Shown one piece after another: positions 35,825-60,834 of a stretch of DNA of 64,000 bases. Under the pieces are notes generated by a model. That model had not been told where the DNA came from. It did not search any database and saw only the letters and a list, made by a program, of their open reading frames with translations. Origin of the DNA: an uncultured Clostridium sp. (GTDB lineage: Bacteria > Bacillota > Clostridia > TANB77 > CAG-508); contig CAZPKK010000001.1 in NCBI GenBank assembly GCA_964587175.1, positions 7,684 to 71,683 on the forward strand, in the 5' to 3' direction. Each line of letters starts with the position of its first letter. The first letter of the stretch is position 1. The position numbers and the translations under genes are program-made.

Positions 35825-35951
35825 ATTTTTTCCTCCTTTTTCCAATAAGGAACTTTTGGTGAAAATTATATTGTTCTATTTAAATTTTCGTCCAATTTTA
35901 TTTTCCCTTAATTTGTATGGCTATATTATATCTCTTTTTTTTTCTTTTTCT

Positions 35952-43849: not shown

Positions 43850-43862
43850 ATCCCATGAAAAA

Positions 43863-43897
43863 AGCTAGTATTTTCAAGTATTTACTAGCTTTTTTTG
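43863..43897. terminator. Bidirectional hairpin between the CRISPR array and cas2
   Basis: AGCTAGTA ... TACTAGCT 8-bp stem flanked by AAAAAA and TTTTTTT. Confidence 0.5.
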
Positions 43898-43945
43898 TTT
43901 AAAAAACAATTGAAATTCATGATAATTTTCTAAAATATAATGTTT

Positions 43946-44266
43946 TTAGAAAAAAGATAATGTCTCATACTCAACTGGTTTCTCATATTTTGATTTCTTT
44001 CCTAATAATATATCTACATTTTCATATTGTTTTTCTGTTATAACCAGAACTCTAATAGATCCCTCGTCTGGCACATTTGCTTTTAACCTTTGTTTATGCA
44101 ATTCTACCATATCATTTCCATTACAAACTCTCGCATAAACAGAAAACTGAATCATATAAAATCCATCTTTTAATAAGAAATTTCTAAATTGTGTTGCCAA
44201 TTTTCGTTCTCGTTTGGTTTTTACTGGCAAATCAAAAAATACCAATATTCTCATAAATTTATGCAT
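43946..44266 (-). CDS. cas2: CRISPR-associated endoribonuclease Cas2
   Basis: MRILVFFDLPVKTKRERKLATQFRNFLLKDGFYMIQFSVYARVC; 106 aa; overlaps the cas1 stop. Confidence 0.9.
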   Translation of the reverse strand: MHKFMRILVFFDLPVKTKRERKLATQFRNFLLKDGFYMIQFSVYARVCNGNDMVELHKQRLKANVPDEGSIRVLVITEKQYENVDILLGKKSKYEKPVEYETLSFF

Positions 44267-45161: not shown

Positions 45162-45240
45162 AATTTTACGCTTAAAACACCTATCTATATAATGCTAGAA
45201 TGAATTAGTTTTAAGATAAATATATAAGCTTCCTCCTTCC

Positions 45241-48200
45241 TTACTTTTTTATGTTAAAAGGCATTCTTTTTTCTGGTATTTTCACTTCATGATAATTACC
45301 TAAAACATCAACTTCATATTTTTTGAATTCTTTTAGTGATTTTATTCCTAAGCTGGATTGTGTAAATTTGTTATCATGTGTTTGAATTGTTATTTGGGCA
45401 ACAGATATTCCTGCTTTTACATAATAAGCAAAAGTATCATCTACTTCTATCTGCTTTTCATTTTTATTATTTGGATTAAGTTTTATTTTGTTTTTTCCTT
45501 TAACATATATCAAATCTTTTGGATATATTGAAAATATAAAATCTCCATCTTTCATTTCTTTCCAATCTTCATATTGCTTAGCAGCAACACATGCCTTGTT
45601 TGGTAATTTATCCTTTATAGTATCACTTACATATATTGGAATAAAGTAATATCCTTCCCCTTCTACATAGAAAACATCTAATCTTACACATTCTCCATTT
45701 CCAGCAAATCCTTCTCCATTTTTTAGTTTTACGCCCAATGTTGTATTTGCTTCAATTTGCACTTTTCTAACTATTGGTCCTTTACTTCCATCTTTCCTTG
45801 ACTTATAAAAATCTTCTTTGAATGCTTCTTTTCCATTTCCGTTAAATTTAATTAATTGTTCTTTCAAAGCATTATATAATAATTTATCATCTTGCTTATT
45901 CTTTTCTAGATAACCTTCTATTTCTCCATTTTTATCTAATTTTAGTTTTGTTAGCTCTGTTTTAGTTATAGTTTTTAATTCTCCATTTTCTTCTTTTATA
46001 CCTCTTATTGTTTCTAGATGTGCCATTCCAGTCACTTTTCTTCTTGGCATTCTAGATACAAAAATAGGTTCTACATCTTCATAATCATCATAAGTAAATA
46101 TTTTTTCTGCATTCAAGCACTCAATCATTCTTTCCTTTGTTTTACAATTAACTCTTATATCTAGTTCTTTTCTAAATTTAGGCCATGGCTCTGGAAAATA
46201 TATTCCATTTTTTTCTTCGTATTCTTTTGCATCCAATATCTCTCCTGTTTCTAAATCAATATATTCTCCTTTATTGTTCATATATTTTCCATCATTATAT
46301 TGATAATATTTGGTTATCCTATTTATCATTCCTTGAGTAGTTATAGCTATAACTGCTGCATCTACTGCATGATGTATATCTCCATCTCTAGTTTTTTCTA
46401 TTCCCAATCTCTTTCTTATATGTGCTGTTACAGATCCATTTACTGTCCATACTTTTCTTTTAAAATTAGGATTATCAGAAAAATCCAGATGATTTCTAAC
46501 TAAATTATACATAAGTTTACTCATATATTGTGTATCTTGTATGTTTCTATCCTTCCAGTCTTTAGCATCTTCTTTAGTAAAATCTTCCCTTAATAATCTT
46601 CTTAGCTTTTTAGGATTCTTTATAATATTGCCGGGTTCTCACAACATATTCATCTATATCTCTTCCTATCTCTTTTTCATATTTATATGGTACTCTATTT
46701 CCTTTTTGCCTATTCTCACTAGCTAAAACTAAAACCTTATTATTATATGTATCATCAAAACACATACTATATGGAATAATATGGTCTACATCTACCACTT
46801 CTGTAAATAATTGTTCCACCGATATCTTTTTACCAGAATATACACAAATTCCATCTTGCTCTTCCCATAATTTGTATTTAACAATATCTTGTCCAGTTGG
46901 ATTTGATTTCCCTAGTTCTATAATTCTTTCTTTTATTCTTTCATTTTTACTCATATTTTCTTCTTGAGACTTTTCTATCTTTCTTCTGTCATTAAAGTTC
47001 TTACCAATTTCTCTCGCAAGTTCTATTACCACAACATCAGGCTTTCCATATTTAGCATTGTATCTAAGAGTTATAGCATTTAATACCTTTATAGCTTGAG
47101 AAATACCTCTTCTAACTACAGGATTAGATATTTCTTGTTCCAAATCTTTCAATCTTAGTTTTCTTTTCTTCTCTGTATTTACAGTTCCTCTAAAATCTTC
47201 ATAAACACTATCAACAGCTTTATCATATGTAACACCTTTTTCAAGTTCAAGTATTATTTTTTTCATAGCTTTAATAGATAAATTTCCAACTTTTGTAAAA
47301 CTTAATTTTAGTAATTCTTGAATAGCTTCATCAGATAAGTTTTGTGTATTTTCTTTCAAATATGCTATCCTCTTATCATCATTTTTATATACAGTTAAAG
47401 CATATCCAATACTATCTAATTCATCTGTAGATAATCTTTCTATATATCCTTTTTCTACTCTATTTAGTGCAGTTTTAATTTTATTATAGCTTTCAAATTC
47501 TTTAAATTTATTGGCTTTTTCCACTTCTTCATTTGTTTCATCAGACCACATTAATATGTTCTTATATGTAAGCATATTAAATCTTTCATTTCTTTCTAAT
47601 TTAAGCTCTTTCCTTAAAGTAGCATACGTTATACTTGCTTTTTCTTTTACTAATTTTATTATTATCTGTCTTTCTTCTTCAGTTAATTCTCTTTTCTCTA
47701 TCCTTCTTGTATCAAAATCATATTTATTAATTTTAATATGATTAATATCTTGTAATAATCTAAAATATTCAAAAATATAACTTGCTTTTGCTGCTCTTTT
47801 TTCATCTTTTTCAAAAGTGCAATTGCCTAGCATTTTTTCTATTTGATTTCCTGCATATGGACTAGGTTCTCCTGGTCCTTCATCAAAACTTCTTTGAGAC
47901 TCAAATATTTCTAAATATTCTTTTATAAAGTCATCAGTTATATTAGAATTTAACTCTTTTTGTTTTTCTAGTATCATTTTTATTTCATCAACTAATAACT
48001 TCCTAAGTGCTGTATTTTTGTATTCATTTATTGAGTTTTTTATCTTTATTTGTTTGTTTCCTTTTTTGTCTAATATGTATTCTCCATTTGAATTTTTTAG
48101 TTTAAATTTATCATCTTTTAAATACATTTCTGCTACTGTTCTATATCCTTTTTCTTTCATTAATTCTTCATTTTCTTTTGTAGCAGTAAGTAATTTTCCT

Positions 48201-48640
48201 GCATCATTTCCAGATGAATTTTCCTCTGATTTACTATTAGACTTATACCCTCTTTTTTTAACCATACTTATCAAAACTCTAGCTAAGTCTTTGTTTGTAA
48301 TTTTCTCATCTAAAGCCATTACTCTTAATTCATAAACATTAAATTGAAATCTATAATTTTCATATAAATTCTCTAGTTCTTTTTTGGAAATAATATTATA
48401 TCTCTCAAGTAGCCTCTTCGTTCTTTCAACTCTATGTTTCTTTCTTCTTAGCCTTCTTCTTAATCCTCTTGCATCTCTTCTGTTTTTAGCTAAAGGTGAA
48501 CCATCTTTTGGATTTTCTGCTGCATCAAAAATTCTTGATCCTAAATCAATTATTCTTTTTGGTTTTCCATTCTCATCATCTTCTATTGCTGCCCATCCAA
48601 CTGAAGTTATTCCGATATCTAGTCCGATTCTATAGCCCAT
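45241..48640 (-). pseudogene. cas9: cas9 (type II-C-like, ~1130 aa) interrupted by a +1 frameshift in a CCCGG run
   Basis: True start is the ATG at 48640 (MGYRIGLDIGITSVGWA, RuvC-I; AGGAGGGA RBS). HNH (DVDHIIPYS...NKVLVLASENRQKGNRVP) is in the upstream fragment. RuvC-III (DGDIHHAVDAAVIA) is in the downstream fragment. The frames overlap at 46613-46638; deleting one C/G at ~46631-46636 restores a continuous reading ...EYVVRTGNIIKNPKKLRRLLREDF... Confidence 0.85.
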
Positions 48641-48654
48641 ATTTTTCTCCCTCC

Positions 48655-48792
48655 TATAACTGAAGATAGCTGCCCTTTTAGAGGCAGCTAGAGCTTTACG
48701 ACTCATAGATTTTACAACAAAATCTAGGTCTTATTGTAATAACCTATTCTACTTTGATATGATATAATTTAATGTGCAATTCCCTTGCACGA
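48655..48792 (-). ncRNA. tracrRNA: Candidate tracrRNA
   Basis: On the - strand: sigma-A-like promoter TTGACA(48825-48820)-17 nt-TAGTAT(48802-48797), then a 36-nt near-copy of the repeat at 48733-48768 (4 mismatches). Transcribed antisense to the crRNAs, this gives the anti-repeat. It is followed by two hairpins (TAGATTTT-gttg-AAAATCTA and GC-rich TAGCTGCC-tctaaaag-GGCAGCTA), ending just before the cas9 RBS. Confidence 0.5.
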
Positions 48793-48905: not shown

Positions 48906-49508
48906 CTAATATCCATAGTCTGCCTCTAATCCATTTTGTTCCCTATATATTCCTTTTACTAAATATTTTACAATATTTTTCATTTTATAAGATGCACCTA
49001 TTTCATAATCATTGTAATACATTCCATTTGCAGTGAAATCCTTTATATGTATCTCATATGATGAAATGTCAGAAACTTTTTCTATTGAATATGTTAATTC
49101 AAAATAATCCGAAAATAATTCATCACATATTTCTTTTGCTTGAGTTACACTCTCTTCTTTTATATACGCATAATTTCCTTGTAACTCTTCGTAGGCTTCT
49201 AACTGTTTTTTTATGTCTGAAAAATAAACCTTCTCCCCACTACTTTTAGTTATGTATTTGTCGTCATTACTATATGTTTCTATTTCAGATTTTGGAATTA
49301 CCTCATCTGTCCATTCGTCGTACTTGATATTATCACTAAATCCTGTATATCCATATTCTTGATATTCGTTATCTAATTCTCTTTTTACAGAGAAAATTAT
49401 AACTAGCAAGATGACTATTCCTATTAAAATTATCCATCGTAATTTATATAATATATAAATTCCACCTATTTGCGATAAAACGTCATTATTTTTCGACATT
49501 ATAAACAT
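48906..49508 (-). CDS. Hypothetical membrane-anchored protein
   Basis: 200-aa ORF with N-terminal TM (WIILIGIVILLVIIFSV); no domain recognised. Confidence 0.4.
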   Translation of the reverse strand: MFIMSKNNDVLSQIGGIYILYKLRWIILIGIVILLVIIFSVKRELDNEYQEYGYTGFSDNIKYDEWTDEVIPKSEIETYSNDDKYITKSSGEKVYFSDIKKQLEAYEELQGNYAYIKEESVTQAKEICDELFSDYFELTYSIEKVSDISSYEIHIKDFTANGMYYNDYEIGASYKMKNIVKYLVKGIYREQNGLEADYGY

Positions 49509-49726: not shown

Positions 49727-50233
49727 ATGTATATAAATAAGGGAAAACGCACCATTTTAATTTTTCCAGAATTTAGTAATTTAGACGAAATACAAAAAAT
49801 CCGAAATAAATATGATCCATTAGCACAACTTATTCCCCCTCACATCACAATAGTATTTCCATTCTCAGATGATATCTCCAACGAGGAATTAATTTCAAAA
49901 TTAACTAATCTAATTAAATCTTTCTCACCTTTCAAAGTTATATTTAAAGGGCTATCTTTATCAAATGATAACTATATCTTCCTAAATTGCATAAAAGGCA
50001 ATGATGAAATTATACAATTACATGATGAAATTTATGCAAAAATACTACCAACACATCTAAAAAAATCTATAAAATATATTCCTCACATAACTTTAGGAAG
50101 AAGCAATTCCTTAGATGGCATAGAATTGGAAAAAGAATTTGAAACGTTTGTAAATGAAATAACTATTGAATTAGTTGGAGAAAATGAAGAATCAATTTTA
50201 ATAAAAAATATAAAATTAGGAGAGCCTTTATGA
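49727..50233 (+). CDS. 2H phosphoesterase superfamily protein (LigT/2'-5' RNA ligase-like)
   Basis: Two H-x-T-x motifs (PPHITIVFPF and PHITLGRS) in a ~170-aa protein. RBS AAAGGAGG. Confidence 0.7.
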   Translation: MYINKGKRTILIFPEFSNLDEIQKIRNKYDPLAQLIPPHITIVFPFSDDISNEELISKLTNLIKSFSPFKVIFKGLSLSNDNYIFLNCIKGNDEIIQLHDEIYAKILPTHLKKSIKYIPHITLGRSNSLDGIELEKEFETFVNEITIELVGENEESILIKNIKLGEPL

Positions 50234-50643: not shown

Positions 50644-51229
50644 GATTAGCTTTTACAAAGTTGCTTGATTGAAACGCTTATTGTTCAATTTACTTAATCA
50701 CTCAAAATAAAGCAACTTAAATTTATATTGTAAAAATGGTAAAATGTAGGAAAAGAATTTATATGATAATACATATAAGTATTGTCAAGTTGCTTTACAT
50801 TTATTTTCTTACGAAATAGCAGAACATTTTTTGAAAAGATAAACGCCTGGCTAGTATAAATATACTAGCCTTTGTATTATATATAAAAGTATAAAATTTT
50901 CCTAGAATAAAAATAATTGCATAAGCAGTTTTTAGTATTTTTTATTGTTTTTTATTTTTTCCCTATTTTTTATTTTTATAATAACTCATTTGTAAATTGC
51001 TTTAACAGAATTATTTTATTATTAAATATGAATCTTGAAGTATATACCTTCGGGTTATGAGTAAAGCTCGTAAAGTATTGGTAAATCTAGCTTTGAGATG
51101 TATTTGTTGGTATATTTGGTGTGCCCAATTTTTTAGCTTTGTAAATTTATGTGATTTTGGGTTATTTTTGGGCAGTTGTGTGCCCATTTTGAGCCCAATT
51201 ATTTTAATAAATTTATGGAGGTTTTGGTT

Positions 51230-51526
51230 ATGAATAGAAAATATTTTTGTTGTTTTAATAATATGAATGTAAATAATAATGACAATGAATTATTTAATAA
51301 TTGGATTGAGTTTAGATTTGAAAAATTAGAAAGTAATTTAACTGACGAAGATAGAAAACATTCTCTTAATTATGATACTTTTTGCGAAAATATTCTTGAT
51401 GTTATTCCTGATAAAGATTCTGGTTATGTTTCTGATATTCTTGATGATTTTAGAGAAGAGTTATTAAATCATTGTGTTTATTGGAATGAGAAGTATTATA
51501 TGACTGGAGTTAATGATGTTATTTAA
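51230..51526 (+). CDS. Hypothetical small protein (98 aa)
   Basis: ATG at 51230 preceded by GGAGGTTTTGGTT; no domain recognised. Confidence 0.4.
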   Translation: MNRKYFCCFNNMNVNNNDNELFNNWIEFRFEKLESNLTDEDRKHSLNYDTFCENILDVIPDKDSGYVSDILDDFREELLNHCVYWNEKYYMTGVNDVI

Positions 51527-51564
51527 TTTATTGCTAATGTTTTAAATTTATAGCATATAAAATA

Positions 51565-51600
51565 AAGTGGGCAATTTGAATTTTCATTGTCCACTTTAAA
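51565..51600. terminator. Bidirectional terminator hairpin AGTGGGCAAT-ttgaattttc-ATTGTCCACT (one G.U pair)
   Basis: 10-bp stem between convergent genes ending at 51526 (+) and 51605 (-); T-rich flank on the - strand. Confidence 0.55.
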
Positions 51601-51604
51601 ATAT

Positions 51605-53959
51605 TTATGCTTCTTCTATAATCTCATATCCAGCAATCTTATATCCTTTTATTCTTCTAAAATACATTTTTTCTAAAACTTTCATATTATCCAAATAATC
51701 ATAAACAATTACTTTACTTTTATCTTCATGTTCTCGGTGAAGTCTTCCTACATATTGCAATATTCTTCCTTTCCATGAAACTGGCATGGTCAAAAATAGT
51801 GTATCTAATCTACTATCATCAAAACCTTCTCCTATAGAACTACTTGTCGCCAAAATTATTCTTGGTTTATTGTTTTTATCAGCTTCATCAATAATGTCTC
51901 GAATTTCTTTTGATTTTTTCTTTCCCATTGCTCCTTTATAAATAACAACTGGAACATTTATACTATCTAATTTTTCTTTTAATATTTTCAAATGTTCTAC
52001 CCTCTCTGTTAAAACAATAGGAATTCTACCCTCTAAAACACATCTCTTTATATCTTGAACTATCATATTATTCCTAAATATATTATGACACATGTCATTT
52101 AAGATTTCTGAAATTTGTATTTTGTCTTTTCCTTCAGTAGAAATATATTTATAACCTGTACTCTTTACAATTACTACATGTTCCATTTCTTTATTTTGTT
52201 TTAATTCGCGATTTGCTACTCTAACTCTTATGTCCCCACATTGCATATAAATAATTTTATGCCATCCATCTTTTCTTGTAGGTGTTGCTGTTAAACCATA
52301 TACGTATTTACTTCTTATAGCTTTCAATACTTTTTCAAAACTAAATGCTGCAACATGATGACATTCATCTATTATAACAAGCCCATAATCCTTAACTATC
52401 TCATTTAAATTGTCTTTCTTGGCTAACGATTGAAAACTAGCTACATCTAATTTACCATTTAAATTTTCTTTACTCGCTCCAATTTGTCCTATTTCTTTTT
52501 TATTTATATTTAGGAAATATGATAATCTTTCTTTCCATTGTTCTAATAAATTATTTCTATTTACTATAACCAAAGTATTTGTTTTTAACTCTGAAATAAT
52601 TTTAGCTCCTATAACAGTTTTTCCAAAACCTGTAGTAGCACATAATATTCCTGTTTCATATTTTAATAACTCATTTTTTACATTTTCCTGCTTTTTATTT
52701 AGTTTTCCTATAAATGTATAATCTGTATTAATTCCTTTTTCTCTTGTATCTTTTATAATTAATTTAACATTGCTTTTTTCACATACTTCTTTAATTTTAT
52801 CTATGCATCCTCTAGGTAATTTTAGGAATCTATCATCTTCCTCAAAGCAACTTATGATCCTTGGTGTTTTATATATAGGTAGTCTTAATTTTTGTTTTTC
52901 ATAAAATTCTGGATTAGTAAAACTAGCTAATCTTTTTAAATAAGATACTTCATTTGGTAACAATTTTAGTTTTTTAACATAAATCATATTATCAAATATA
53001 CATTCTACATTATTTACAAATTTAATTTCTCTTAAATTTTCTTTTTCAGGCAATTCATCATCTTCTATCTGCTCTACATCAGGTTCTTTATAATCATCTT
53101 CTCTATATTTATTAACAAAATTATAAACATCATCACTTTTAATTCTTTTTATATTTTTCAAAATTTCAAATTGATTTTTTTCTGGCTCAAAATATTTATT
53201 TACAAAAACTGTATTTCCACTATTGCTACTTTCTCCCTGAAAAGGTAACGCTATTAGATTACCAAATCCACCTTTAGGCATTGTATCCTGATTTGGAAAT
53301 AACCTATCATATGAATCCAAGTCCAATGATTCTTTCTCCATCGTTTTTGTTAAAAGAATATTTCCCATTTTTCTAGCAACATTTGCTGGCATACTTTTTT
53401 CAAAAAATATCCATACATGCGCTCCATTTCCAGATCGCGATTTTTCAACATATATTGGTATATTTAGTTCATCACATATATTCCAAAATGCTAATACATC
53501 TTTCTCATAAGTCTTTTTATCAAAATCTATTGCTAGAAAATTACATAAATCTCCCGGTAATAGTGGGTAAATTCCTATAGTTATTTTTCCTTGTAAATGT
53601 TTTAATATAACATCTTTTGTTAAAGGTTGTAACTCTCTAAAAACACAATTATTGCATTTAACTCTTGGTTTATCACATTTATATGTATTAAATTCATTTA
53701 TACATACTGGTGAATACCCTGATTTTCCGCTTTTACTACTTGTCCACCTTTTTGCATAAATATCTGTCCTTCCTTTAAATATTTCCATAAATATTTTTAT
53801 TTTTTCTTCAGTTGAAATAGCTTTTGTTTCTTTTCTTATTTCTTTTTCTTCTACTTTTCTGTCTAATTTTCCATACAATTTTTCTTTTAGTTCTTTATTT
53901 TCTTTTTCTAATTCTTTTAATCTTTCTTTTAATTCTTTTTTTCCTAATTTTTCTAACAA
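51605..53959 (-). CDS. Fusion protein: N-terminal coiled coil + Zn-finger + AEP primase-polymerase-like domain, C-terminal SF2 (DECH/ResIII-type) helicase
   Basis: TTG start with AAGGAGGG RBS. Cx2C...CxxC (PVCINEFNTYKCDKPRVKCNNCVF). AEP-like motifs FLAIDFD (DxD), SRSGNGAHVWIFF (sGxGxHxW) and GGFGNLIALPF. Helicase motifs I TGFGKT, II VIIDECHH, III LTATPTR, VI QYVGRLHR. Confidence 0.6.
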   Translation of the reverse strand: MLEKLGKKELKERLKELEKENKELKEKLYGKLDRKVEEKEIRKETKAISTEEKIKIFMEIFKGRTDIYAKRWTSSKSGKSGYSPVCINEFNTYKCDKPRVKCNNCVFRELQPLTKDVILKHLQGKITIGIYPLLPGDLCNFLAIDFDKKTYEKDVLAFWNICDELNIPIYVEKSRSGNGAHVWIFFEKSMPANVARKMGNILLTKTMEKESLDLDSYDRLFPNQDTMPKGGFGNLIALPFQGESSNSGNTVFVNKYFEPEKNQFEILKNIKRIKSDDVYNFVNKYREDDYKEPDVEQIEDDELPEKENLREIKFVNNVECIFDNMIYVKKLKLLPNEVSYLKRLASFTNPEFYEKQKLRLPIYKTPRIISCFEEDDRFLKLPRGCIDKIKEVCEKSNVKLIIKDTREKGINTDYTFIGKLNKKQENVKNELLKYETGILCATTGFGKTVIGAKIISELKTNTLVIVNRNNLLEQWKERLSYFLNINKKEIGQIGASKENLNGKLDVASFQSLAKKDNLNEIVKDYGLVIIDECHHVAAFSFEKVLKAIRSKYVYGLTATPTRKDGWHKIIYMQCGDIRVRVANRELKQNKEMEHVVIVKSTGYKYISTEGKDKIQISEILNDMCHNIFRNNMIVQDIKRCVLEGRIPIVLTERVEHLKILKEKLDSINVPVVIYKGAMGKKKSKEIRDIIDEADKNNKPRIILATSSSIGEGFDDSRLDTLFLTMPVSWKGRILQYVGRLHREHEDKSKVIVYDYLDNMKVLEKMYFRRIKGYKIAGYEIIEEA

Positions 53960-54358
53960 AGCTATTCCCTCCTTTTATGTCTATATATTATATACTATTT
54001 TCAAGATTTTATCAAATTATGTAAATTTAACTTTTTTGTGATAAAAGATATACCCTTTTATTAATGATTTTTAAACATATTTGCTATCTACCATATTTTT
54101 AACTTTATAAATTATATACTTTGAGTCAGTTGAATATTAATTTAGAATTCAATTATTTTTGTCAAATTTAATTTCATAAGTTATAAAAATAAAGTGGGCA
54201 ATTTGAATTTTATAATTTTTCATTTTGCTCACTTTATTTATAAACTCTGCAGTGTTCTCTGCAGGAAATTTCTATCTTTTTCATTTTATATATACTTTTT
54301 TAATTATTGATTCATTAAGCGACATTTTTTAAAAAAACATCGCTTTCAACCGTCATTT

Positions 54359-55807
54359 TTATTGTTTTTGAAATTTATATTTTGTTCCTTCAGCCTTAAT
54401 GATAAGATTCAAATCTAAAAGTAAAGAAATTAAATTAGTTGCTCTTGTATCTTTTATATTTAAAATGTTCTTTATATCTTCCCTAGAAAACATATTGTTG
54501 TAGCCCATTTTTTCAAAAATATTTCTTATTTGATTTATTGTACTATTTCTAATATTTGTATTTTGTATACTTTTATATAACTGTATAAAAAATAAGTCTC
54601 TATCTGAAACAATATTTTTATTTTCATCCATTTCATTTGTTTTATAATAGCCCTTATTAGGAAATATCACTGTAAATGATAGAGAATCAGAAATAAATTT
54701 TGGTTTTTGAATAGAATCATTATAGCTCTCCAATATTCTACTTAATCCACTTCCCCTACGATCCATGTAATGTAATCTACTGAAAACATCTGCAATTACA
54801 ATATTTCTTCTCATAGATGGAATATTTTTTATCTCCAGATTTTGAATAAGACTGCCATCAAACATCCCTCCTGGTGAAGTAATTTCTAATCTATCATCAA
54901 ACATATCTATATGAATTTCTGCTCCTAAAATCTGATAATCTCTGTGAATTAATGCATTTACTATTGCTTCCCTACGTGCAGTAATGGGATATTCCTCTAG
55001 TTCTTGTCTTTCCATTCCTACGACTTTCCAAGACATTTTAGAATTATTTTTTATAAAAGAATCTGCATTCTCTAATAATGCTATAATACTTCCATTATAT
55101 TCCTTGTCATCAATTGCATCTTCTGCTATTATTCCCTTATTTAAGCCTTTCCACCTAGTACATACAATTTTAGACTGCTTTAAGGGATTTTGATCACTTA
55201 ATAATAGTCCTGCATTTGTTAGTTCTTTTTCAGTGTTAGCTAAGCCCAAAGAAAAGAAATCTTTATTTTCATCAAATTTTTTATTCGTTTTTTCTTTTAT
55301 AGTCGCTGCTAACAAAGTAAAACTTAAATCATTAATTTTATAATCTGTTGGTAATGCATCAAATGTTAAATTTTTTCCTTTTAATATAAGATTATTTAAT
55401 ATATGTTCTGGAGCGGGTATACTTTGATTTCCAGAACGAATAAAAGCTTCTTTTCTTCCATCTATTACTAAATAATATGGAGTTGACGGTCCATCTCCTA
55501 TTTTTAATTCTAAAAAATCTTTTCCATTTTCAGTAAAAGAATTTATTTCATATCTAGGTAATGGTAAAATTCTAGCATTTATAATTTCAGTAATTTTTTC
55601 AGCTACCTGTTGAATATTATCTAATCCTTTTAGTTCATGTGTACTGTCATCCACTCCGAATAAAATGATTCCACCTTTTGAATTAGCAAATGCGGATACT
55701 GACTTTAACCAACTTTTAGGTTTTTTTTCTTCTAATGCAATTTTATAATCAATATTACTTGTCTCTGCTTTTTCATAATCTTTTATCTTCAAATTATATA
55801 CCTCCAC
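54359..55807 (-). CDS. Schlafen/AlbA_2 domain ATPase with C-terminal HATPase_c_4-like domain (RecG-C-terminal-like putative regulator)
   Basis: N-terminal AlbA_2 signature (ETSNIDYKIALEEKK...LKSVSAFANSKGGIILFGVDD). C-terminal REAIVNALIHRDY motif typical of the HATPase_c_4 family. RBS GGAGGT. Confidence 0.65.
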   Translation of the reverse strand: MEVYNLKIKDYEKAETSNIDYKIALEEKKPKSWLKSVSAFANSKGGIILFGVDDSTHELKGLDNIQQVAEKITEIINARILPLPRYEINSFTENGKDFLELKIGDGPSTPYYLVIDGRKEAFIRSGNQSIPAPEHILNNLILKGKNLTFDALPTDYKINDLSFTLLAATIKEKTNKKFDENKDFFSLGLANTEKELTNAGLLLSDQNPLKQSKIVCTRWKGLNKGIIAEDAIDDKEYNGSIIALLENADSFIKNNSKMSWKVVGMERQELEEYPITARREAIVNALIHRDYQILGAEIHIDMFDDRLEITSPGGMFDGSLIQNLEIKNIPSMRRNIVIADVFSRLHYMDRRGSGLSRILESYNDSIQKPKFISDSLSFTVIFPNKGYYKTNEMDENKNIVSDRDLFFIQLYKSIQNTNIRNSTINQIRNIFEKMGYNNMFSREDIKNILNIKDTRATNLISLLLDLNLIIKAEGTKYKFQKQ

Positions 55808-55864
55808 ATTATAATTTTAATATTATATTATCACTTTTATGCTTTTATTACAACCAATTTTTAT

Positions 55865-55893
55865 AAAAAATGTCGCTTATAAGCGACATTTTT
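55865..55893. promoter_or_regulatory. Perfect 29-nt palindrome AAAAATGTCGCTTATAAGCGACATTTTT, followed at 55901 by a third AAGCGACATTTTT copy
   Basis: Read directly. It sits in the 196-nt gap between the MTase gene end and the AlbA_2 gene start. Likely a terminator for the upstream operon and/or an operator. Confidence 0.5.
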
Positions 55894-56003
55894 GCATATA
55901 AAGCGACATTTTTTCTTTACTATTCTATTATATTTCTATCATTTAACACATATTTAAATATTTTTGAATTATTTTTATGTATTTTAATTCTAATATTGAT
56001 ATT

Positions 56004-57329
56004 TTAATTATTTTTACTTTTTAATCCAATCAGTGCTCTTGCAATAGCTTTTGATAATAATGGTGGTACAGCATTTCCAACTTGAACATATTGAGCTGTT
56101 CTTGGACCTTCAAACAAATAATTATCAGGAAAACTTTGAATCCTAGCTGCTTCTCTAACTGTTAATGCTCTACACTGTTTAATATCTGGATGAATATTAT
56201 AATGTCCATCCTTGCTTATATGAGCAACTATTGTATGTGGTACTTCATACATTCCATGTACTTTAAATCTATCTGAAAATGATTTTTCATTTTTATGTGT
56301 TTTTAAATTTTCTGGTAATTCGTTATAATAAAGTTTCTCCTTTTTATTTGCTTTTTTTATTGCCAATTGATAAATCTTCTTATCACGATCATTTAATTTT
56401 CTTGCTTTGTGATTTAAAATTCCTATACTATCTTTTCTTAAGTATTCTTCATACTTTGATTGAGGGAGATTCTTATATTTTACAATTTTTCTATCATATC
56501 CTTCTCCATCTTTCAGTTTATTTAAATCTAATATAGCATTTTTAGTATTAATATCCTCGTCAAATTTTTCTGCATATTTTTCAAAATCTGGATAGTCATA
56601 ATTCAAGTCTCTTCTTACTCCAAATAATATTACTCTTTTTCTAGTTTGATATACACCATAATTTATAGCTTCTTGAAGATTCTCTTCTTTATTCTTATTA
56701 TTTCCTACTTTTAACATGTAGTCAATTTTACTGAATTCTTCTGAAATTTCATCAAATATTTTTCCTTTTTGAGCTGTAAATATCCCAGGTACATTTTCAA
56801 ATATAAACATTTCCGGTTTGTATTTTTTTACTATATCTCTATAATAGTAAAATAAATAATTTCTTTCATCTTCTTTTACTTTTTCCTTCATTCTACTTCT
56901 TCCAATTACAGAATATGCTTGACATGGAGGGCCTCCAATTATGATATCTACTTTTTTTTCTTTTAGATATCTCATTGATTTATCAATCAATTTAAATATC
57001 TCATTTATATCTGTTGCATCTTTATCTTTTTTTACATTTCCAAATTTTTTATTTAATACTGTTTTATCCAATAAATCTCTTAATTCAGGATATTTTTTAA
57101 AAACAATTTCTCTATTTTTATCTACATTATTATAATTATCTGATGATAATAAATATTTATTATACATCTCCAAATCATCTTTTTCTTTTAAATAATAGTA
57201 CATTATTCTTGTTTTTAATGTTTCACATGCCCAATATTCTTTTTCAATATGTGCTACAAATTTATATCCTTCACTTAAGAAGCCTTCTGTTAAACCTCCT
57301 GCACCTGAAAACAAATCTATTACTACCAT
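56004..57329 (-). CDS. DNA (cytosine-5)-methyltransferase
   Basis: Motif I VIDLFSGAGGLTEGF, motif IV GGPPCQAYS, motif VI FIFENVPG, motif VIII QTRKRVILFG, motif X VGNAVPPLL. Confidence 0.9.
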   Translation of the reverse strand: MVVIDLFSGAGGLTEGFLSEGYKFVAHIEKEYWACETLKTRIMYYYLKEKDDLEMYNKYLLSSDNYNNVDKNREIVFKKYPELRDLLDKTVLNKKFGNVKKDKDATDINEIFKLIDKSMRYLKEKKVDIIIGGPPCQAYSVIGRSRMKEKVKEDERNYLFYYYRDIVKKYKPEMFIFENVPGIFTAQKGKIFDEISEEFSKIDYMLKVGNNKNKEENLQEAINYGVYQTRKRVILFGVRRDLNYDYPDFEKYAEKFDEDINTKNAILDLNKLKDGEGYDRKIVKYKNLPQSKYEEYLRKDSIGILNHKARKLNDRDKKIYQLAIKKANKKEKLYYNELPENLKTHKNEKSFSDRFKVHGMYEVPHTIVAHISKDGHYNIHPDIKQCRALTVREAARIQSFPDNYLFEGPRTAQYVQVGNAVPPLLSKAIARALIGLKSKNN

Positions 57330-57338
57330 TTTATTCTC

Positions 57339-59030
57339 CTATAAATCTATATTTTGTTTGCATAGAATATACAATAATAACTTTGCTCTTGAAATTGCAA
57401 CATAATTTAATATTTTAGAATCTATATCATTTACTTTGTCTACATCACAAAGTATTATAATTTTTGATTCTAATCCTTTAAAGCTATGTATTGTTGAAAA
57501 TCTTATATAATCATCTTGCTTATTTTCAGAATAGTCTGCAATATTTTTTACTCTGGCTATATCTTTTAAAAAATTATTTCCTTTAAATACGCTATCTTCA
57601 TAATTATATCTAGACAAAATTGTAATTTCATTATTTTTTATTCCATTCATTTTTAATCTTTTAACAATTCTTTTTATTTCATTCTTTTGACTAATTTCAT
57701 CGCCATACTTTATTATTTCTACATCCTCACCTATTGCTTCATCATTTATACTTTGGATTATTCCTGTTATTTTCACATTCATATTAGAAATCTGCATTGT
57801 ATTTCTGCAATTTTTAGTTAGAACTGTTATTACTGGTCTTATATCTTCTTCTAATAATTCTAGTAATTCTTTAAGTTCATTATTATATAAATTCTGCTTT
57901 TCATCTAATGCCATATACCAATTTCCGTTTTTTAGACCACCATATATTAACTTATCTAAACATTCAATATATTGTATTTTTATTAAATCTTGAGCTTCAT
58001 CTAATAACATCACTTCATATTCTTCATTATCGATTCTTATAAAATCTTGTGGTAATTGAGTTTCAAAAAATTTACTTGTATTCTCTACTATATAACTATT
58101 ATCTACCTTTCTAATTTTTTCTAGCATATAAGCATGTAAACTTGTAATTTTTATATTATTTTTTATTTCATTATCTTCTTGTTTTAATCGTTCATTTAAA
58201 TACTTACTTAATACTTTATTATAACATACAAATATTACTTTTTTCCCTAGTGCAGATAATTCAAGTGCTTTTTCATATAATAAAACAGTCTTTCCAGTTC
58301 CTCCTGTTCCTTTAATTATTATTCTTTTATTTTCAGACATAGAATCTAATATTTGTTTTTGTTCTTTAGTTAACTTTATTAATATTTTCTCTGTAGATTT
58401 CAATTCTGATGCCAGACTTTGTGAATATCCAAAATCTCCTCTTAATATAGTTGTTATTCTACTTACTTCTGAATTATTTAAAAAACTTCTTTTAGCATTA
58501 TATTTTTTAAAAAACTTGTCTGAATGATATTTAAACACATTATCAATTATTGTCTTTATATCACTATCTTGTAGTTTTTCAATATCTATTGTTATTTTTC
58601 CTTCTATATCTATTTCCTGCCTATCAAAAACTATATCTGGAAAAGCTACAGCATATGCAAACTGAATATTAGAAACATTTATATTTGTATTACTTAACCT
58701 ATTTCTTAAATATTTCATCAATGAATACATATTTTTAGATACTTGATCATATGGTCCTTCAACTTTTTCATTTTTATTTCCATATCTATCTGTAAAAATC
58801 CATATTCCTTCCTTTCTTTCAACTCTTCCACCTTTTACTTCTATACATAATATACCTTTTGGACATATTATCAAAAAATCTATTTCTCCTTCTACTTTTT
58901 GTATATGCTCCAATAATTTTAATGAATGCATTACAATATATTCATTAGGTAATTCCTTTAATTTTTCAAACATTTTCTTTTCAGCTGAACTACAATTTTC
59001 TATAATTTGATTTGGTATCATTTTTGCCAT
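57339..59030 (-). CDS. NERD nuclease-like domain fused to UvrD-like (SF1) helicase/ATPase
   Basis: N-terminal NERD pattern (GEIDFLIICPKGILCIEVKGGRVER), Walker A GTGGTGKT, C-terminal UvrD-C-like motif IRFSTIHSFKGLESKIIIL. RBS AGGAGAG. Confidence 0.7.
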   Translation of the reverse strand: MAKMIPNQIIENCSSAEKKMFEKLKELPNEYIVMHSLKLLEHIQKVEGEIDFLIICPKGILCIEVKGGRVERKEGIWIFTDRYGNKNEKVEGPYDQVSKNMYSLMKYLRNRLSNTNINVSNIQFAYAVAFPDIVFDRQEIDIEGKITIDIEKLQDSDIKTIIDNVFKYHSDKFFKKYNAKRSFLNNSEVSRITTILRGDFGYSQSLASELKSTEKILIKLTKEQKQILDSMSENKRIIIKGTGGTGKTVLLYEKALELSALGKKVIFVCYNKVLSKYLNERLKQEDNEIKNNIKITSLHAYMLEKIRKVDNSYIVENTSKFFETQLPQDFIRIDNEEYEVMLLDEAQDLIKIQYIECLDKLIYGGLKNGNWYMALDEKQNLYNNELKELLELLEEDIRPVITVLTKNCRNTMQISNMNVKITGIIQSINDEAIGEDVEIIKYGDEISQKNEIKRIVKRLKMNGIKNNEITILSRYNYEDSVFKGNNFLKDIARVKNIADYSENKQDDYIRFSTIHSFKGLESKIIILCDVDKVNDIDSKILNYVAISRAKLLLYILCKQNIDL

Positions 59031-59054
59031 ATCTAATTTTCTCTCCTCTGTAAC

Positions 59055-60830
59055 TTATCTCTCTTCGTTTTGATAAAACTCTTTAAAAAATCCTATTTCT
59101 AAATTATCTAATCTTCCTCTTATTGCTGCTCTATCTAACAAAATATTTCTTAATTCACAACTTGTTTCTGGCAAGAGCGTACATGCATGGCAAGCGACTA
59201 AATTTAAATCTTTGTATCCTGATTGTTCTCTTTCTATGCACAATGGATCTGTTGAACACCAAGCCATATTTTCTATAGTTTTTTCTAATATTTTTTCAAA
59301 TTTTTTTGTTTTTCCTTGTTTTACCAATCCCCCTAGACTACCATCTGAATCACTAGATGTTGTATATATTAATATACCAGCCATATCAATTTTCCCATCA
59401 TCAAATGTAGTATAAATTCTCTCTTTTAAAGCTGTAGAAGAATACCCACATTCAAAAGTTAATTGTCTTATAATTGCATGTGACAAAGTATGTAGCAAGA
59501 TAGTTCTAGGTGTTATTGCTTTTCTTAATCCTTTTAAATATCCTTCTTCCTTTCTATTAACTATATATTCATATCTTCTTTTTACAGCTACTCTATTTTC
59601 CCATTCTTGAATTTTTGCTTTATTAAATTCTATAAATATTCCTTCACCTTTCTGATTCACTCCTGGTAACCATTTTTGGTTTATTTTATCAGTTAACCTA
59701 GTATAAGAATTACTATCTATTAGGTCATATTCTGGGTTTATCCTTTTAAAACCAACTTCTACAATTGTTTCTGTCATTTTCTTTACTAATATTACTTTAT
59801 TTATATATTTATTTATGAATTCTGGTACCTGTTCCTCTTTAGTTATAAATTCGTCTTCATTTGCTTCCATTCTTAATGCTTTATATTCATCTTCTAATAA
59901 TTCATTAAATGTTAACTCATCTCTATTTTTTTCTGCTAATACTGCTTCTACCATATAATCTGCTTCTTCTTTTGATATATTGTATAATCTTAATAATTTA
60001 TTTATTATTGTATGTATTAACATTTGTGTATTATCAAAATCTTCCTTATTTTCTTCGTAAAATTTTTCTATTTTTTGACTTATCTCTTTGCTCCAAGGAG
60101 GTATTAATATAGAACTTACAGTTATTGGAAAATATACTGATGAAGATGATCTTTGTAAAGTAACTACATTTTCACTACAATGCTCTCTCTTGTCTCCTAA
60201 CCAAGATTCTTCACCATTGCATTGTACTTTAAAAGTTCTCTCACTAAATGTTGCTCCCATATCTCTTTTTTTACCACATTCACATTCAATTATTATAGAC
60301 TTCAATTCTCCAGTTTTTCCTGTATCTTTTATTTTCATCATTTTATTGCATTCAGTTGGTCCTCCATGTACCCATTCACGATATGGAAAATCTGAAATAT
60401 GTCCTTTCTCACAAGCTACAACAAATCTTGATGGAATTACTTCTCTATTACATTTATCACAAAAAATTTTGCCATTTTTTAATAAGAACTCTGTATATGG
60501 AGCTAATTTTTTACAAATTGGACAATAATACCACTTTGGAAATCTATATGCTTGAATATCAGGATGTAGAAAATGATTATTGGACTTATCTTTTGTAAAA
60601 GGTGGCATTAAAAAATAATCTTTTCCTAGTAAATTTTGTAATCTTATGTTATTTATTTTTAATTCATCTACATTTTCACTTTTTTCCCAACCATCAATTC
60701 CTGCAATAATTACTGATGCATCTTTTAAATCAGCTATTGCTCCAGGTCCCATTGTTGTTATTAACTGATTCCTTCTTAATTTTCCTTTAATTCTTGGTTT
60801 TTTGTCTTTTTCTATTTCCATATTTATCAT
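59055..60830 (-). CDS. DUF1998 (MrfB/DrmB-like zinc-binding domain) protein
   Basis: Multiple CxxC pairs (YCPICKK, CDKCNRE) and a C-terminal four-Cys signature (CSTDPLCIERE...LVACHACTLLPETSCELRNILLDRAAI) typical of DUF1998. Start overlaps the upstream helicase stop, suggesting translational coupling. Confidence 0.65.
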   Translation of the reverse strand: MINMEIEKDKKPRIKGKLRRNQLITTMGPGAIADLKDASVIIAGIDGWEKSENVDELKINNIRLQNLLGKDYFLMPPFTKDKSNNHFLHPDIQAYRFPKWYYCPICKKLAPYTEFLLKNGKIFCDKCNREVIPSRFVVACEKGHISDFPYREWVHGGPTECNKMMKIKDTGKTGELKSIIIECECGKKRDMGATFSERTFKVQCNGEESWLGDKREHCSENVVTLQRSSSSVYFPITVSSILIPPWSKEISQKIEKFYEENKEDFDNTQMLIHTIINKLLRLYNISKEEADYMVEAVLAEKNRDELTFNELLEDEYKALRMEANEDEFITKEEQVPEFINKYINKVILVKKMTETIVEVGFKRINPEYDLIDSNSYTRLTDKINQKWLPGVNQKGEGIFIEFNKAKIQEWENRVAVKRRYEYIVNRKEEGYLKGLRKAITPRTILLHTLSHAIIRQLTFECGYSSTALKERIYTTFDDGKIDMAGILIYTTSSDSDGSLGGLVKQGKTKKFEKILEKTIENMAWCSTDPLCIEREQSGYKDLNLVACHACTLLPETSCELRNILLDRAAIRGRLDNLEIGFFKEFYQNEER

Positions 60831-60834
60831 TCCT

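Follow-up and report, generated by a model that had tools for sequence, protein, structure and literature searches.

A clostridial homologue of the E. coli IEE protein: a PrimPol-SF2 ATPase fusion carried as a presence/absence cassette

The iee-like gene described here lies in a 64-kb stretch of DNA from an uncultured Clostridium sp. (the whole of which is referred to below as the window), and its product is a homologue of IEE, the protein first found in E. coli O157:H7 on a SpLE1-like island (ECs1305, UniProt A0A0H3JF09). It is probable, at about 0.72 by our own estimate, that this homologue also acts as IEE does in the excision of IS elements. The protein belongs to the IEE family, both of its active sites are conserved and its folds are those of a PrimPol and an SF2 ATPase, while its gene has independent transcription signals and a cassette-like pattern of presence and absence. 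The fusion of a PrimPol to an SF2 module is one that is already known, and in this regard the window gene is an ordinary new member of the IEE family.

Identity of the protein

In a BLASTP comparison with the 786-residue IEE of E. coli O157:H7, the window protein shows 40% identity and 58% similarity (595 bits), in an alignment that is colinear from end to end and pairs residues 11-784 with IEE residues 7-781. The initial annotation of this DNA had proposed an uncharacterised defence or mobile-element replication protein, a description that gives way to membership of a known family, IEE or Z1568-like, at this level of full-length identity. Residues D145, D147, H181 and D218 fall opposite D142, D144, H178 and D216 of IEE, Y131 opposite Y128 and K447 opposite K451, and the O157:H7 protein itself carries the published IEE residues Y128, D142, D144, S171, Q175, G176, H178 and K451. 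The tyrosine at this site replaces the histidine that selects ribonucleotides in LigD-type AEPs.

The AEP domain of IEE defines the 'Z1568-like' PrimPol family (PMC9943667, PMC5862659), which Pfam now models as AEP-TOTE; PGAP likewise labels IEE of E. coli 'TOTE conflict system AEP domain'. The HHpred templates reported for IEE are the CAPP PrimPol 7NQE and UvsW/XPB, and since the model of the window protein matches these same two templates (7nqe; XPB/UvsW), its structural matches support the identification as an IEE homologue. Firmicute homologues of IEE have, moreover, already been noted in the literature.

Domain architecture and active sites

The features of the locus are collected in Table 1. 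The AlphaFold model of the 784-residue protein has a pLDDT of 90.8 and a pTM of 0.84, and it begins with a long helix that is probably a coiled coil. Next comes the catalytic AEP domain, in which motif A is formed by D145/D147, motif B by H181 and motif C by D218, the patterns hDhD, sxH and hD of these three motifs being intact, with Y131 at the ribose-discriminating position. The motifs on which the two halves had originally been assigned are all present, namely FLAIDFD (residues 141-147), SGNGAHVWIFF (176-186) and DECH (531-534). The assignment of the N-terminal half to the AEPs is upheld by a Pfam profile search, in which PF22548 (AEP-TOTE) matches at E 1.6e-94 over positions 1-229 of a 230-position model, and by a sequence match to MpCAPP 7NQD at E 1e-14, in which DxD, GxxH and FPxQ are aligned. 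The AEP fold is confirmed by the model, as the initial annotation had suggested checking along with profiles: Foldseek pairs it with 7nqe, the CAPP PrimPol, at E 2e-14 and a TMt of 0.78. Within this domain lies an insert with a Cys4 cluster, presumed to be a zinc site, the segment being missing from MpCAPP (query residues 73-110 remain unaligned).

The C-terminal half had been read as an SF2 helicase, and an SF2 ATPase nearest to XPB and UvsW is indeed what it is. Pfam profiles for ResIII (E 1.1e-26), DEAD and Helicase_C match it, as do the sequences of XPBII (E 7e-21), UvsW and RadD, and Foldseek returns XPB and UvsW at E about 1e-21. Motif I is GKT at 446-448, motif II the DECH given above, motif III TATP and motif VI QxxGRxxR at 735-742. 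The Foldseek alignments to XPB run to some 495 columns and cover whole XPB chains of 437-442 residues; in other words, the small domain of residues 305-418, whose NPEFY...LPRG residues are conserved, falls inside the stretch that aligns to complete archaeal XPB chains.

Across a 55-sequence family alignment, Y131, D145, S174, S176, G179, H181, D218, G446 and K447 are invariant, D147, D531, E532, C533, H534 and the four cysteines C86, C95, C102 and C105 are at least 90% conserved, and the SF2 arginines R739/R742 are conserved as well.

Table 1. Features of the iee-like locus in window coordinates
Feature	Position	Strand	Basis
iee-like gene, PrimPol (AEP) fused to SF2 ATPase	51605..53959	-	ORF, IEE alignment and AlphaFold model
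N-terminal long helix, aa 7-34, Lys/Glu-rich	53858..53941	-	AlphaFold model; the E. coli IEE alignment begins inside it
AEP/PrimPol catalytic domain, aa 52-280, Z1568-like, Pfam AEP-TOTE	53120..53806	-	PF22548, 7NQD and 7nqe matches
Cys4 cluster C86, C95, C102, C105, insert in AEP domain, putative zinc site	53645..53704	-	Family alignment; present in E. coli IEE
Linker and small alpha/beta domain, aa 305-418, ahead of ATPase core	52706..53047	-	Model secondary structure, Foldseek, family alignment
SF2 ATPase core, aa 419-784	51608..52705	-	ResIII, Helicase_C and XPB/UvsW matches
RBS GGAGGG, 7 nt 5' of TTG	53967..53972	-	Direct reading of sequence
Sigma-70-type promoter match, TTGATA-17 nt-TATAAT, start codon 28 nt downstream	53987..54015	-	11/12 positions; consensus match only
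Intrinsic terminator of iee-like gene, hairpin and U tract; 3' arm is repeat copy 1	51553..51598	-	RNA fold -15.8 kcal/mol, z -4.56
Intrinsic terminator of upstream AlbA_2 gene; 3' arm is repeat copy 2	54180..54239	-	RNA fold -18.9 kcal/mol, z -5.12
26-nt direct repeat copy 1, one cassette junction	51559..51584	+	Exact repeat; single copy in L098
26-nt direct repeat copy 2, other cassette junction	54186..54211	+	Exact repeat; single copy in L098

Transcription signals and the junction repeat

The ORF reading of the window agrees with the first description of the gene as a single reading frame with a TTG start codon. The gene is monocistronic, as had also been claimed, and it has its own promoter match and a terminator hairpin on either side. 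Both hairpins were missed by a simple terminator scan because their loops exceed 8 nt, and they were detected by RNA folding instead. The gene was further said to be bracketed by its own duplicated 25-nt terminator module. The duplication is real, but its length is 26 nt, and while the downstream copy does belong to the gene, the upstream copy is part of the terminator of the preceding AlbA_2 gene and so lies outside the transcript. The latter terminator shields the iee-like gene from read-through, whilst the former is probably bidirectional, serving also the convergent gene at 51176-51526.

The 26-nt sequence is an exact direct repeat, with two copies in the window against none expected by chance, and on the minus strand each copy provides the 3' arm of a stable hairpin which is followed by a U tract. 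At an empty site (L098) a single copy of the repeat links the two outer flanks, and the AlbA_2 terminator hairpin is still intact there. The repeat is the junction of a 2.6-kb presence/absence polymorphism. The 2.6-kb cassette, which extends from promoter to terminator, occurs or is missing independently of its flanks. Strains of the L099 and L085 types carry it, as the window does.

Genomic context

On one side of the gene stand a type II CRISPR array, cas2, cas1 and cas9 (43418-48706), and on the other DrmMII, a NERD helicase, DrmB and DrmA (56004-63900), the matches in this DISARM-like cluster being 5e-230 for DrmA, 4e-90 for DrmB and 3e-175 for DrmMII; these positions agree with the earlier placement of the gene between CRISPR-Cas and DISARM-like genes. 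Its immediate flanks are an AlbA_2/HATPase_c_4 gene and an unannotated 116-aa gene. The distance to cas1 is about 6.4 kb, an interval occupied by cas9, a 200-aa ORF and, on the opposite strand, LigT and the 116-aa gene.

With cas1 and cas2 both within 7 kb, the protein could be thought a CRISPR-associated primase-polymerase of the CAPP-Helicase type, assisting Cas1-Cas2 in the production or processing of prespacers for the type II system next to it. At E 2.4e-87, the PADLOC/CCTyper model 'PrimPol, CAS-associated' (PDLC01465) is matched over nearly its full extent, and the AEP domain of the window protein is of the CAPP_A type and homologous to that of MpCAPP. The CAPP-Helicase type, in which a PrimPol is followed by a helicase and of which RHW43474 is an example, was described by Zabrady et al. 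(2021; PMC8211822) and is the commonest of the non-CRISPR CAPP forms. Against such a role, however, the gene stands outside the cas operon with a promoter and terminators of its own, its presence or absence does not depend on its flanks, the cas9 of the window is split by a frameshift, and the NCBIfam model PrimPol_Msp, at 109 bits, falls short of its cutoff of 200. Moreover, a Cas protein is just 1 of the 150 immediate neighbours of homologues, a count which, like the other neighbour counts below, is approximate, the ORF calls in high-GC loci being crude (longest ORF, greedy). On gene context a role in CRISPR adaptation is rejected, and we regard it as scarcely credible.

The same gene context bears on the Pfam name. 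TOTE conflict systems are said to be so called from TPR, OB, TBP and Effector, and reportedly it is from these systems, attributed to Aravind, Iyer and Burroughs in 2022, that the name AEP-TOTE derives. Membership of such a system is rejected, because the TPR/OB and TBP partner genes are absent beside the gene and from the commonest neighbour families (no TPR, cold-shock or TBP family is among the 25 commonest Pfam families of the 150 immediate neighbours). The terms 'TOTE conflict', 'AEP-TOTE' and 'PF22548' received no mention in the literature searched. One very common family currently runs under four unlinked names, these being 'DEAD/DEAH box helicase', 'TOTE conflict system AEP domain protein', 'CAPP-Helicase / Cas-associated PrimPol' and IEE.

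Distribution and variants of the family

The family was found in more than 600 species, a minimum taken from the matches listed, and its AEP domain alone forms about 8,000 clusters at 50% identity. In E. coli the distribution is patchy, 876 of 5426 complete genomes (16%) carrying the gene. The AEP plus SF2 architecture is present in 54 of 55 diverse full-length representatives, whose identity to the window protein ranges from 31 to 61%, such that E. coli IEE, at 40%, is a typical member. The window protein has no identical sequence on record, the nearest cluster (P0001) being 97% identical. A C-terminal PLD nuclease is fused to about 10 of the 55 representatives, and about 12 of the 55 bear a C-terminal extension when PLD, DUF559 and REase domains are taken together.

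These nuclease-fused forms enter into a further explanation, in which the protein would be a stand-alone anti-phage or anti-plasmid effector: the translocase would load on invading DNA, the PrimPol would make aberrant DNA or block replication, and the relatives fused to nucleases would cut the target. The extensions fit such a scheme, although the window copy itself has no nuclease domain. The position of the gene between a CRISPR-Cas locus and a DISARM-like cluster, the hotspot-type polymorphism, the patchiness in E. coli and the Pfam label, which places the AEP domain in a 'conflict system', are also consistent with it, as is a linkage to AbiE. Indeed, AbiEi-AbiEii precede about 12% of homologues (at 8 of 82 loci AbiEii is the gene immediately upstream, in the same orientation, with AbiEi adjoining), and the AbiE-linked operon recurs in close gut relatives. 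However, the literature searched yielded neither a defence phenotype nor a PrimPol-helicase defence system of this architecture, PADLOC holds a Cas-associated PrimPol accessory model only and not a defence system, and the one tested member has another demonstrated role, that of IS excision. Overall, then, a role as a defence effector is unlikely. The AbiE linkage and the PLD-fused forms do hint at a conflict role that is wider or of another kind, and the AbiE-IEE operon, which recurs, merits closer study along with the variants fused to nucleases, although neither sets the window locus apart; a position in a defence island is, by itself, poor ground for calling a new defence system.

Association with mobile elements

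Homologues of about 80% identity occur in two types of integrated element. Type A is arranged as AbiEi-AbiEii-gene-70 aa-tyrosine integrase, with RepA_N and TnpV nearby, and type B as SKI-232 aa-gene-HTH_36-Mob_Pre...serine recombinase, an element that splits an EPSP synthase gene. E. coli IEE, for its part, lies at that end of its island which carries the integrase, and its neighbours are YfjI and an inovirus Gp2-type gene. Such associations would be expected if the protein served a small integrative or mobilisable element as its replicative primase-helicase, in which case the window copy would be a remnant. Other evidence, however, makes this highly unlikely. Type A elements bring their own RepA_N initiator, the ATPase resembles XPB/UvsW rather than the hexameric helicases of replication, and unwinding of DNA by IEE does not occur in vitro. 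Among 50,697 phage records there is no match that spans 80% or more of the protein, the phage matches reaching the helicase half only, and just 98 of 72,556 plasmid records attain such coverage, the best 30 of the 98 spanning 56 kb to 1.4 Mb; a phage or plasmid replicase is rejected on these grounds.

The initial annotation had itself allowed that homologues might prove to be replication initiators of integrated elements, flanked by integrases. Close relatives do reside in integrated elements, but most of the 82 sampled loci have no integrase beside the gene, no integrase family is among the 25 commonest Pfam families of the 150 immediate neighbours, and the 64-kb window yielded no integrase, relaxase or Rep gene. 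As to replication itself, nothing shows that these proteins initiate it.

Proposed function

The role of IEE in IS excision in vivo and its activities in vitro have been published (PMC9943667; bioRxiv 10.1101/2023.06.07.543989). The protein promotes the transposase-dependent excision of IS3, IS1 and IS30 elements, has Mn2+-dependent polymerase and MMEJ activity, and hydrolyses ATP without unwinding DNA in vitro. Copy-out-paste-in IS elements co-occur with it in 94.75% of IEE-positive E. coli assemblies. Its mechanism in vivo is debated, between end joining and strand switching.

By analogy with the E. coli enzyme, from which both the activities and the role in IS excision in this clostridial host are carried over, the N-terminal PrimPol would be a Mn2+-dependent, low-fidelity DNA polymerase that tolerates dislocation of primer and template, and the XPB/UvsW-like module would be a DNA-dependent ATPase whose task is to hold or align DNA, without unwinding. 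Between them, the domains might bring 3' single-stranded ends together, or let a nascent strand switch, where there is microhomology of at least 4 nt, and then carry out the extension. Acting in vivo on the intermediates that transposases make from copy-out-paste-in elements of the IS3, IS1 and IS30 families, the protein would thereby yield excision products and flanking deletions, with the net outcome that IS copies are removed and the genome is reshaped. At 40% identity to IEE, the function may have drifted.

A wider proposal would make IEE-type PrimPol-translocases general, stand-alone anti-mobile-element immunity genes, beyond any help that they give to IS excision, which spread as promoter-to-terminator cassettes inserted at, or deleted between, the terminator hairpins of defence hotspots, some of them in concert with an AbiEi/AbiEii module or with a PLD nuclease fused to them. 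This proposal is doubtful; if true, the 26-nt junction repeat would mark a new kind of cassette exchange, for which the microhomology-joining activity of the enzyme itself may be the catalyst.

The main value of the identification as an IEE homologue is in annotation. Once linked to IEE, the clostridial gene has a function that can be tested, namely IS removal via microhomology-mediated joining, and should its product prove to promote IS excision, a mechanism studied so far only in E. coli would extend to gut Firmicutes, in which IS load and deletion formation shape strain diversity.

Comparison with known systems

In the replicative primase-helicases of mobile elements (pRN1 ORF904, P4 alpha, D5-like) the AEP is fused to or paired with a hexameric helicase of SF3, MCM or DnaB type, within a replicon that has an integrase or origin, whereas here the helicase is of SF2. 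Pol theta and the pAgo-associated AgaPP/AgaPH pair follow the functional logic proposed for the window protein, in that a low-fidelity polymerase works with an SF2-type ATPase to promote microhomology-mediated end joining; nevertheless, the polymerase folds are unrelated, that of Pol theta being of the A family, the domains are ordered differently, and AgaPH is a separate DUF3987 5'-3' helicase. XPB/Rad25 and T4 UvsW are the best matches to residues 305-784 in both sequence and structure, although the module in the window is fused to a polymerase and the Bax1-like nuclease partner is absent.

For the AEP domain, the solved structures that match best are those of MpCAPP (7NQD, 7NQE and 7P9J), but the window protein has neither the TPR nor the PriCT-like domain of MpCAPP, possesses a Cys4 insert that MpCAPP does not, and is encoded with no operonic link to cas1-cas2. 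With the TOTE systems it shares an AEP domain that matches AEP-TOTE over the full model, but neither a TPR-cold-shock gene nor a TBP-domain gene flanks it.

IEE remains the nearest of the known systems. The two differ in their setting, IEE being enterobacterial and sited at the integrase-bearing end of a large SpLE1-like island, whereas the window gene belongs to a low-GC, spore-forming Firmicute and forms a 2.6-kb cassette in a chromosomal defence island, with no IS visible nearby (the ORFs of the 64-kb window yielded no transposase or IS). In the protein itself the likeness is extensive, 784 residues against 786 being laid out in the same order of N-terminal helix, Cys4-bearing AEP, linker domain and SF2 ATPase, with matching metal ligands, motif B histidine, sugar-selector tyrosine, Walker A lysine, DE(C/x)H box and motif VI arginines.

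Domain architecture and relationship to IEE

The N-terminal half of the protein belongs to the AEP fold, as the initial annotation had proposed, and profile, sequence and AlphaFold/Foldseek comparisons all give this same answer. In Pfam, residues 52-280 match PF22548 'AEP-TOTE' (E 1.6e-94), followed by ResIII (residues 419-562) and Helicase_C (647-742), while in PADLOC the sole strong match is the Cas-associated PrimPol accessory model (E 2.4e-87); the NCBIfam CAPP type A1 model scores 109 bits, under its 200-bit cutoff. Among solved structures, sequence comparison pairs the AEP half with the PrimPol domain of the Marinitoga CAPP, MpCAPP (7NQD/7NQF, E 1e-14), with the DxD, GxxH, FPxQ and GNLIxxP motifs aligned, and the helicase half with archaeal XPB (E 7e-21), UvsW and RadD. 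An AlphaFold model built from a 55-sequence full-length family alignment, A1, is confident (pLDDT 90.8, pTM 0.84), and in Foldseek searches of the PDB its N-domain finds CAPP 7nqe (E 2e-14, target-normalised TM 0.78, 27% identity) and its helicase part XPB and UvsW (E ~1e-21). MpCAPP differs in lacking the insert at residues 73-110, which holds the Cys4 cluster. This cluster (residues 86-105) is kept family-wide, including in the E. coli IEE, the IS-excision enhancer; the IEE biochemistry paper does not discuss it, its mentions of Zn fingers being confined to pRN1 and human PrimPol (PMC9943667).

Full-length homologues in E. coli emerged from a search of plasmid proteins, and the gene is present in 876 of 5,426 complete E. 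coli genomes. In O157:H7 (locus L091) it sits at the integrase end of a urease-bearing island, in the order integrase, HTH, YfjI, inovirus Gp2-type, homologue and IS elements. [quoted passage not shown] 2023, PMC9943667), whose key residues are Y128, D142, D144, S171, Q175, G176, H178, D216, K451 and R735 (PMC9943667). In the 786-aa L091 protein Y128, D142, D144, S171, Q175, G176, H178 and K451 occur at exactly the published positions, and the protein is therefore IEE. The window protein aligns with it end to end (40% identity, 58% positives). In other words, by sequence and predicted fold it joins the known IEE/Z1568-like PrimPol-SF2 family as a new and distant member, such that the initial fold assignment stands and the description 'uncharacterised' does not. 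RefSeq/PGAP labels the E. coli gene (L091:15001-17361) 'TOTE conflict system archaeo-eukaryotic primase domain-containing protein' or 'DEAD/DEAH box helicase family protein'; the experiment-based name IEE is missing there, and the connection to the published work is thereby obscured.

Gene model and genomic context

The open reading frame was confirmed where it had been placed, on the minus strand with a TTG start and a product of 784 aa, and the motifs read from it (FLAIDFD, SGNGAHVWIFF, DECH and four cysteines) were all found. The TTG is preceded, at a distance of 7 nt, by the ribosome-binding site GGAGGG, and the promoter match, TTGATA-17-TATAAT, agrees with the consensus at 11 of 12 positions. 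Since the first in-frame methionine thereafter, residue 58, falls within conserved sequence, and alignment with the E. coli homologue begins at residue 11, the TTG start is credible.

The first 42 kb of the window (28% GC), with genes for SpoIIE, MreB, MreD, MinC, a penicillin-binding protein, two NrdD proteins, RadC and MecA, is a chromosomal housekeeping region of a low-GC spore-former. The NrdD paralogues stand side by side, each with an ATP-cone. No transposase or integrase was found in the 64-kb window. In the type II CRISPR locus, a frameshift and multiple stops separate the 698-aa and 427-aa cas9 ORFs, so that cas9 is a pseudogene here or else has been misassembled. The cluster at the far end, with DrmMII (E 3e-175), a NERD + UvrD-type SF1 helicase, DrmB (4e-90) and DrmA (5e-230), is by these matches DISARM class 2-like; its NERD helicase, for which the top PADLOC match is RTasNERD-Hel, occupies the expected nuclease-partner position, and no PLD DrmC was seen in the portion within the window.

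Features of the window around the iee-like gene
Feature	Position	Strand	Remark
NrdG-like activase gene	32982-33485		single, adjoins the NrdD genes
NrdD paralogues	33524-35845 and 36120-38039	-
CRISPR array	43418-43849		36-nt repeats
cas2 and cas1	43946-45161
cas9	45241-46524 and 46610-48706	-	two ORFs split by frameshift
200-aa ORF	48906-49508		sole match a weak, sub-threshold FtsH_ext
LigT-like gene	49727-50233	+
116-aa gene	51176-51526	+	no family match
26-nt repeat, copy 1	51559-51584
2,627-bp unit	51585-54211
iee-like gene	51605-53959	-	784 aa
Cys4-encoding segment	53645-53704
Promoter match	54015-53987	-
26-nt repeat, copy 2	54186-54211
AlbA_2/HATPase_c_4 gene	54359-55807
DISARM-like cluster	56004-63900	-	runs past window end

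A polymorphic unit bounded by a 26-nt repeat

The gene had been described as bracketed by its own duplicated 25-nt terminator module. An exact direct repeat within hairpins is indeed present, with two copies in the window and none expected by chance, but it is 26 nt long, and only one of the hairpins would serve this gene. On the minus strand each copy makes up the 3' arm of a hairpin, after which comes a U tract, with predicted folding energies of -15.8 kcal/mol (z -4.6) downstream and -18.9 kcal/mol (z -5.1) upstream; from these folds, the downstream hairpin is the predicted terminator of the iee-like gene and the upstream hairpin that of the preceding AlbA_2/HATPase_c_4 gene.

A metagenome scan for the 26-mer returned three contigs. 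Two (L099 and L100) have the same arrangement as the window. The third, L098, contains the repeat only once, and through it the left flank of copy 1 (window 51046-51584, 93% identical) runs straight into the right flank of copy 2 (window 54167-54330). L098 thus represents the empty site, and the upstream gene's hairpin is uninterrupted there (L098:2254-2297). The 2,627-bp unit, comprising the iee-like gene with its own terminator arm and promoter and one repeat copy, is thus polymorphic for presence or absence; the 26-nt repeat delimits it, and it is located within the upstream gene's terminator hairpin. It arose either by insertion of a circle carrying the 26-mer or by deletion between the repeats.

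The site upstream of the iee-like gene behaves as a cassette hotspot. In contigs L085-L088, which encode a 97%-identical protein, the stretch corresponding to window 51046-54264 is shared and the upstream gene is different, being in L085 a 528-aa gene in the AlbA_2 position. The AlbA_2/HATPase_c_4 region (window 54212-55939) corresponds to L099:9259-10830, which occupies a gap between sequences adjacent in L098 (2404-2417), with ~14 nt shared at the junction; from this alignment the gene looks like a second inserted unit.

The family and its neighbours

The family is large and uniform. A word-indexed search gave at least 8,000 matches, of which the best 120 are 766-810 aa long and 79-97% identical, all with AEP-TOTE and ResIII/DEAD; a source name is given for only two of these ('DEAD/DEAH box helicase [Clostridia bacterium]'). 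With just the N-domain as query, there are 7,959 matching clusters (50% identity) at E <= 1e-3 and 1,019 at E <= 1e-30. When one genome was scanned for each species, the matches listed came from more than 600 species, mostly at 39-45% identity, in Clostridia, Bacilli, Acidobacteriota, Verrucomicrobiota, Chloroflexota, Planctomycetota, Bacteroidota and Proteobacteria. AEP-TOTE is present in 55 of 55 full-length representatives and ResIII in 54. Their alignment has D145, S174, S176, G179, H181, D218, R219, G446 and K447 invariant, and D147, DECH 531-534, the four cysteines, Q735, G738 and R739 at least 90% conserved. Some representatives carry extra C-terminal nuclease-type domains: PLD in ~10 (~950-980 aa; for example, protein entries P0125, P0136, P0140 and P0143), DUF559 (Vsr-like) in one and an MTES_1575 REase in one. 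This PrimPol-translocase-nuclease architecture is outside the IEE literature examined.

Neighbours were surveyed by Blast clustering of four genes on each side at 82 loci, with a Pfam scan of the 150 immediate neighbours. There is no universal partner gene in the 82 loci, and integrases are absent from the 25 commonest Pfam families. A TOTE system was rejected, the TPR/OB and TBP genes being absent both beside the gene and from the 25 commonest families of these neighbours. The proximity of cas genes could suggest a part in CRISPR adaptation, which we regard as extremely improbable: cas1 is ~6.4 kb away with unrelated genes between, two on the opposite strand; the iee-like gene has its own transcription signals and varies in presence independently of its flanks; and only one of the 150 neighbours is a Cas protein.

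The commonest neighbour is AbiEii (12 of 82 loci), lying directly upstream on the same strand in eight of the 12, with gaps of -19 to +158 nt (seven of eight within 66 nt) and AbiEi-type antitoxins adjoining. The order AbiEi antitoxin, AbiEii nucleotidyltransferase toxin, IEE homologue, on one strand with very short gaps, recurs at ~10-12 of 82 loci (L001, L010, L021, L027, L029, L053, L063, L079 and L092-L096, genes -2 and -1) in Clostridia, Acidobacteriota, Verrucomicrobiota and Gammaproteobacteria, and no mention of it was found in the literature examined. This linkage, together with the island location of the iee-like gene and the nuclease-fused variants, could point to stand-alone defence, compatible with IEE as an anti-IS factor; a corresponding phenotype was not found in the searchable literature, and we consider such a role unlikely. 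At ~10 loci, mostly from Acidobacteriota, Chloroflexota and Chlamydiota, the homologue has beside it a ~380-aa unannotated protein starting MSEYQYYEFQ, mostly directly downstream and sometimes with a 4-nt overlap, and/or a small CcbP-like (PF11535) protein (L072:12863-14008, L070:12307-13833, L049:12319-12705, L019, L029, L035 and L068).

Mobile elements clearly spread the IEE family. Close gut homologues are carried on two kinds of integrated element, and IEE itself sits on an island, which would also accord with a replicase of mobile elements. This is nonetheless very unlikely, given that a full-length copy occurs in none of 50,697 phage records and just 98 of 72,556 plasmid records, and that the ATPase is not of the replicative helicase type. 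One gut Clostridia element (L004:8144-22270, L097:3597-9865) contains shikimate kinase, a 232-aa gene, the IEE homologue, HTH_36, a Mob_Pre relaxase and Bro-N genes, with a large serine recombinase added in L004; it is inserted in the EPSP synthase (aroA) gene, fragments of which flank the element in L004.

Predicted chemistry and comparison with known systems

As a DNA polymerase, IEE depends on Mn2+, is error-prone and dislocates primer and template, and it joins 3' overhangs at microhomologies of at least 4 bp, for which both domains are needed; the C-terminal domain has DNA-dependent ATPase activity and no unwinding activity on duplex DNA (PMC9943667). In vivo, it increases transposase-dependent excision of the IS3, IS1 and IS30 families, and flanking deletions arise (PMC9943667; bioRxiv 10.1101/2023.06.07.543989). 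Two models are debated, end joining of transposase-made breaks (PMC9943667) and a strand switch in the copy-out replication step (bioRxiv 10.1101/2023.06.07.543989). Because the window protein retains both active sites, as judged from the family alignment, the best-supported reading is that it would share this chemistry, namely Mn2+-dependent polymerase activity, microhomology joining and ATPase activity.

What merits pursuit here is only the cassette polymorphism, the AbiE linkage, the nuclease fusions and the four disconnected names under which one family is found. The Z1568-like family has been placed within the Prim-Pol clade (Kazlauskas et al. 2018, PMC5862659), and homologues in Firmicutes and many other phyla were reported by Kusumoto et al. 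2011, as cited in bioRxiv 10.1101/2023.06.07.543989. The 'CAPP-Helicase', the most prevalent non-CRISPR form of CAPP, has the same architecture (Zabrady et al. 2021, PMC8211822), and the HHpred templates reported for IEE, 7NQE and UvsW 2OCA (Chandler et al., bioRxiv 10.1101/2023.06.07.543989), are the same as those obtained for the window protein.
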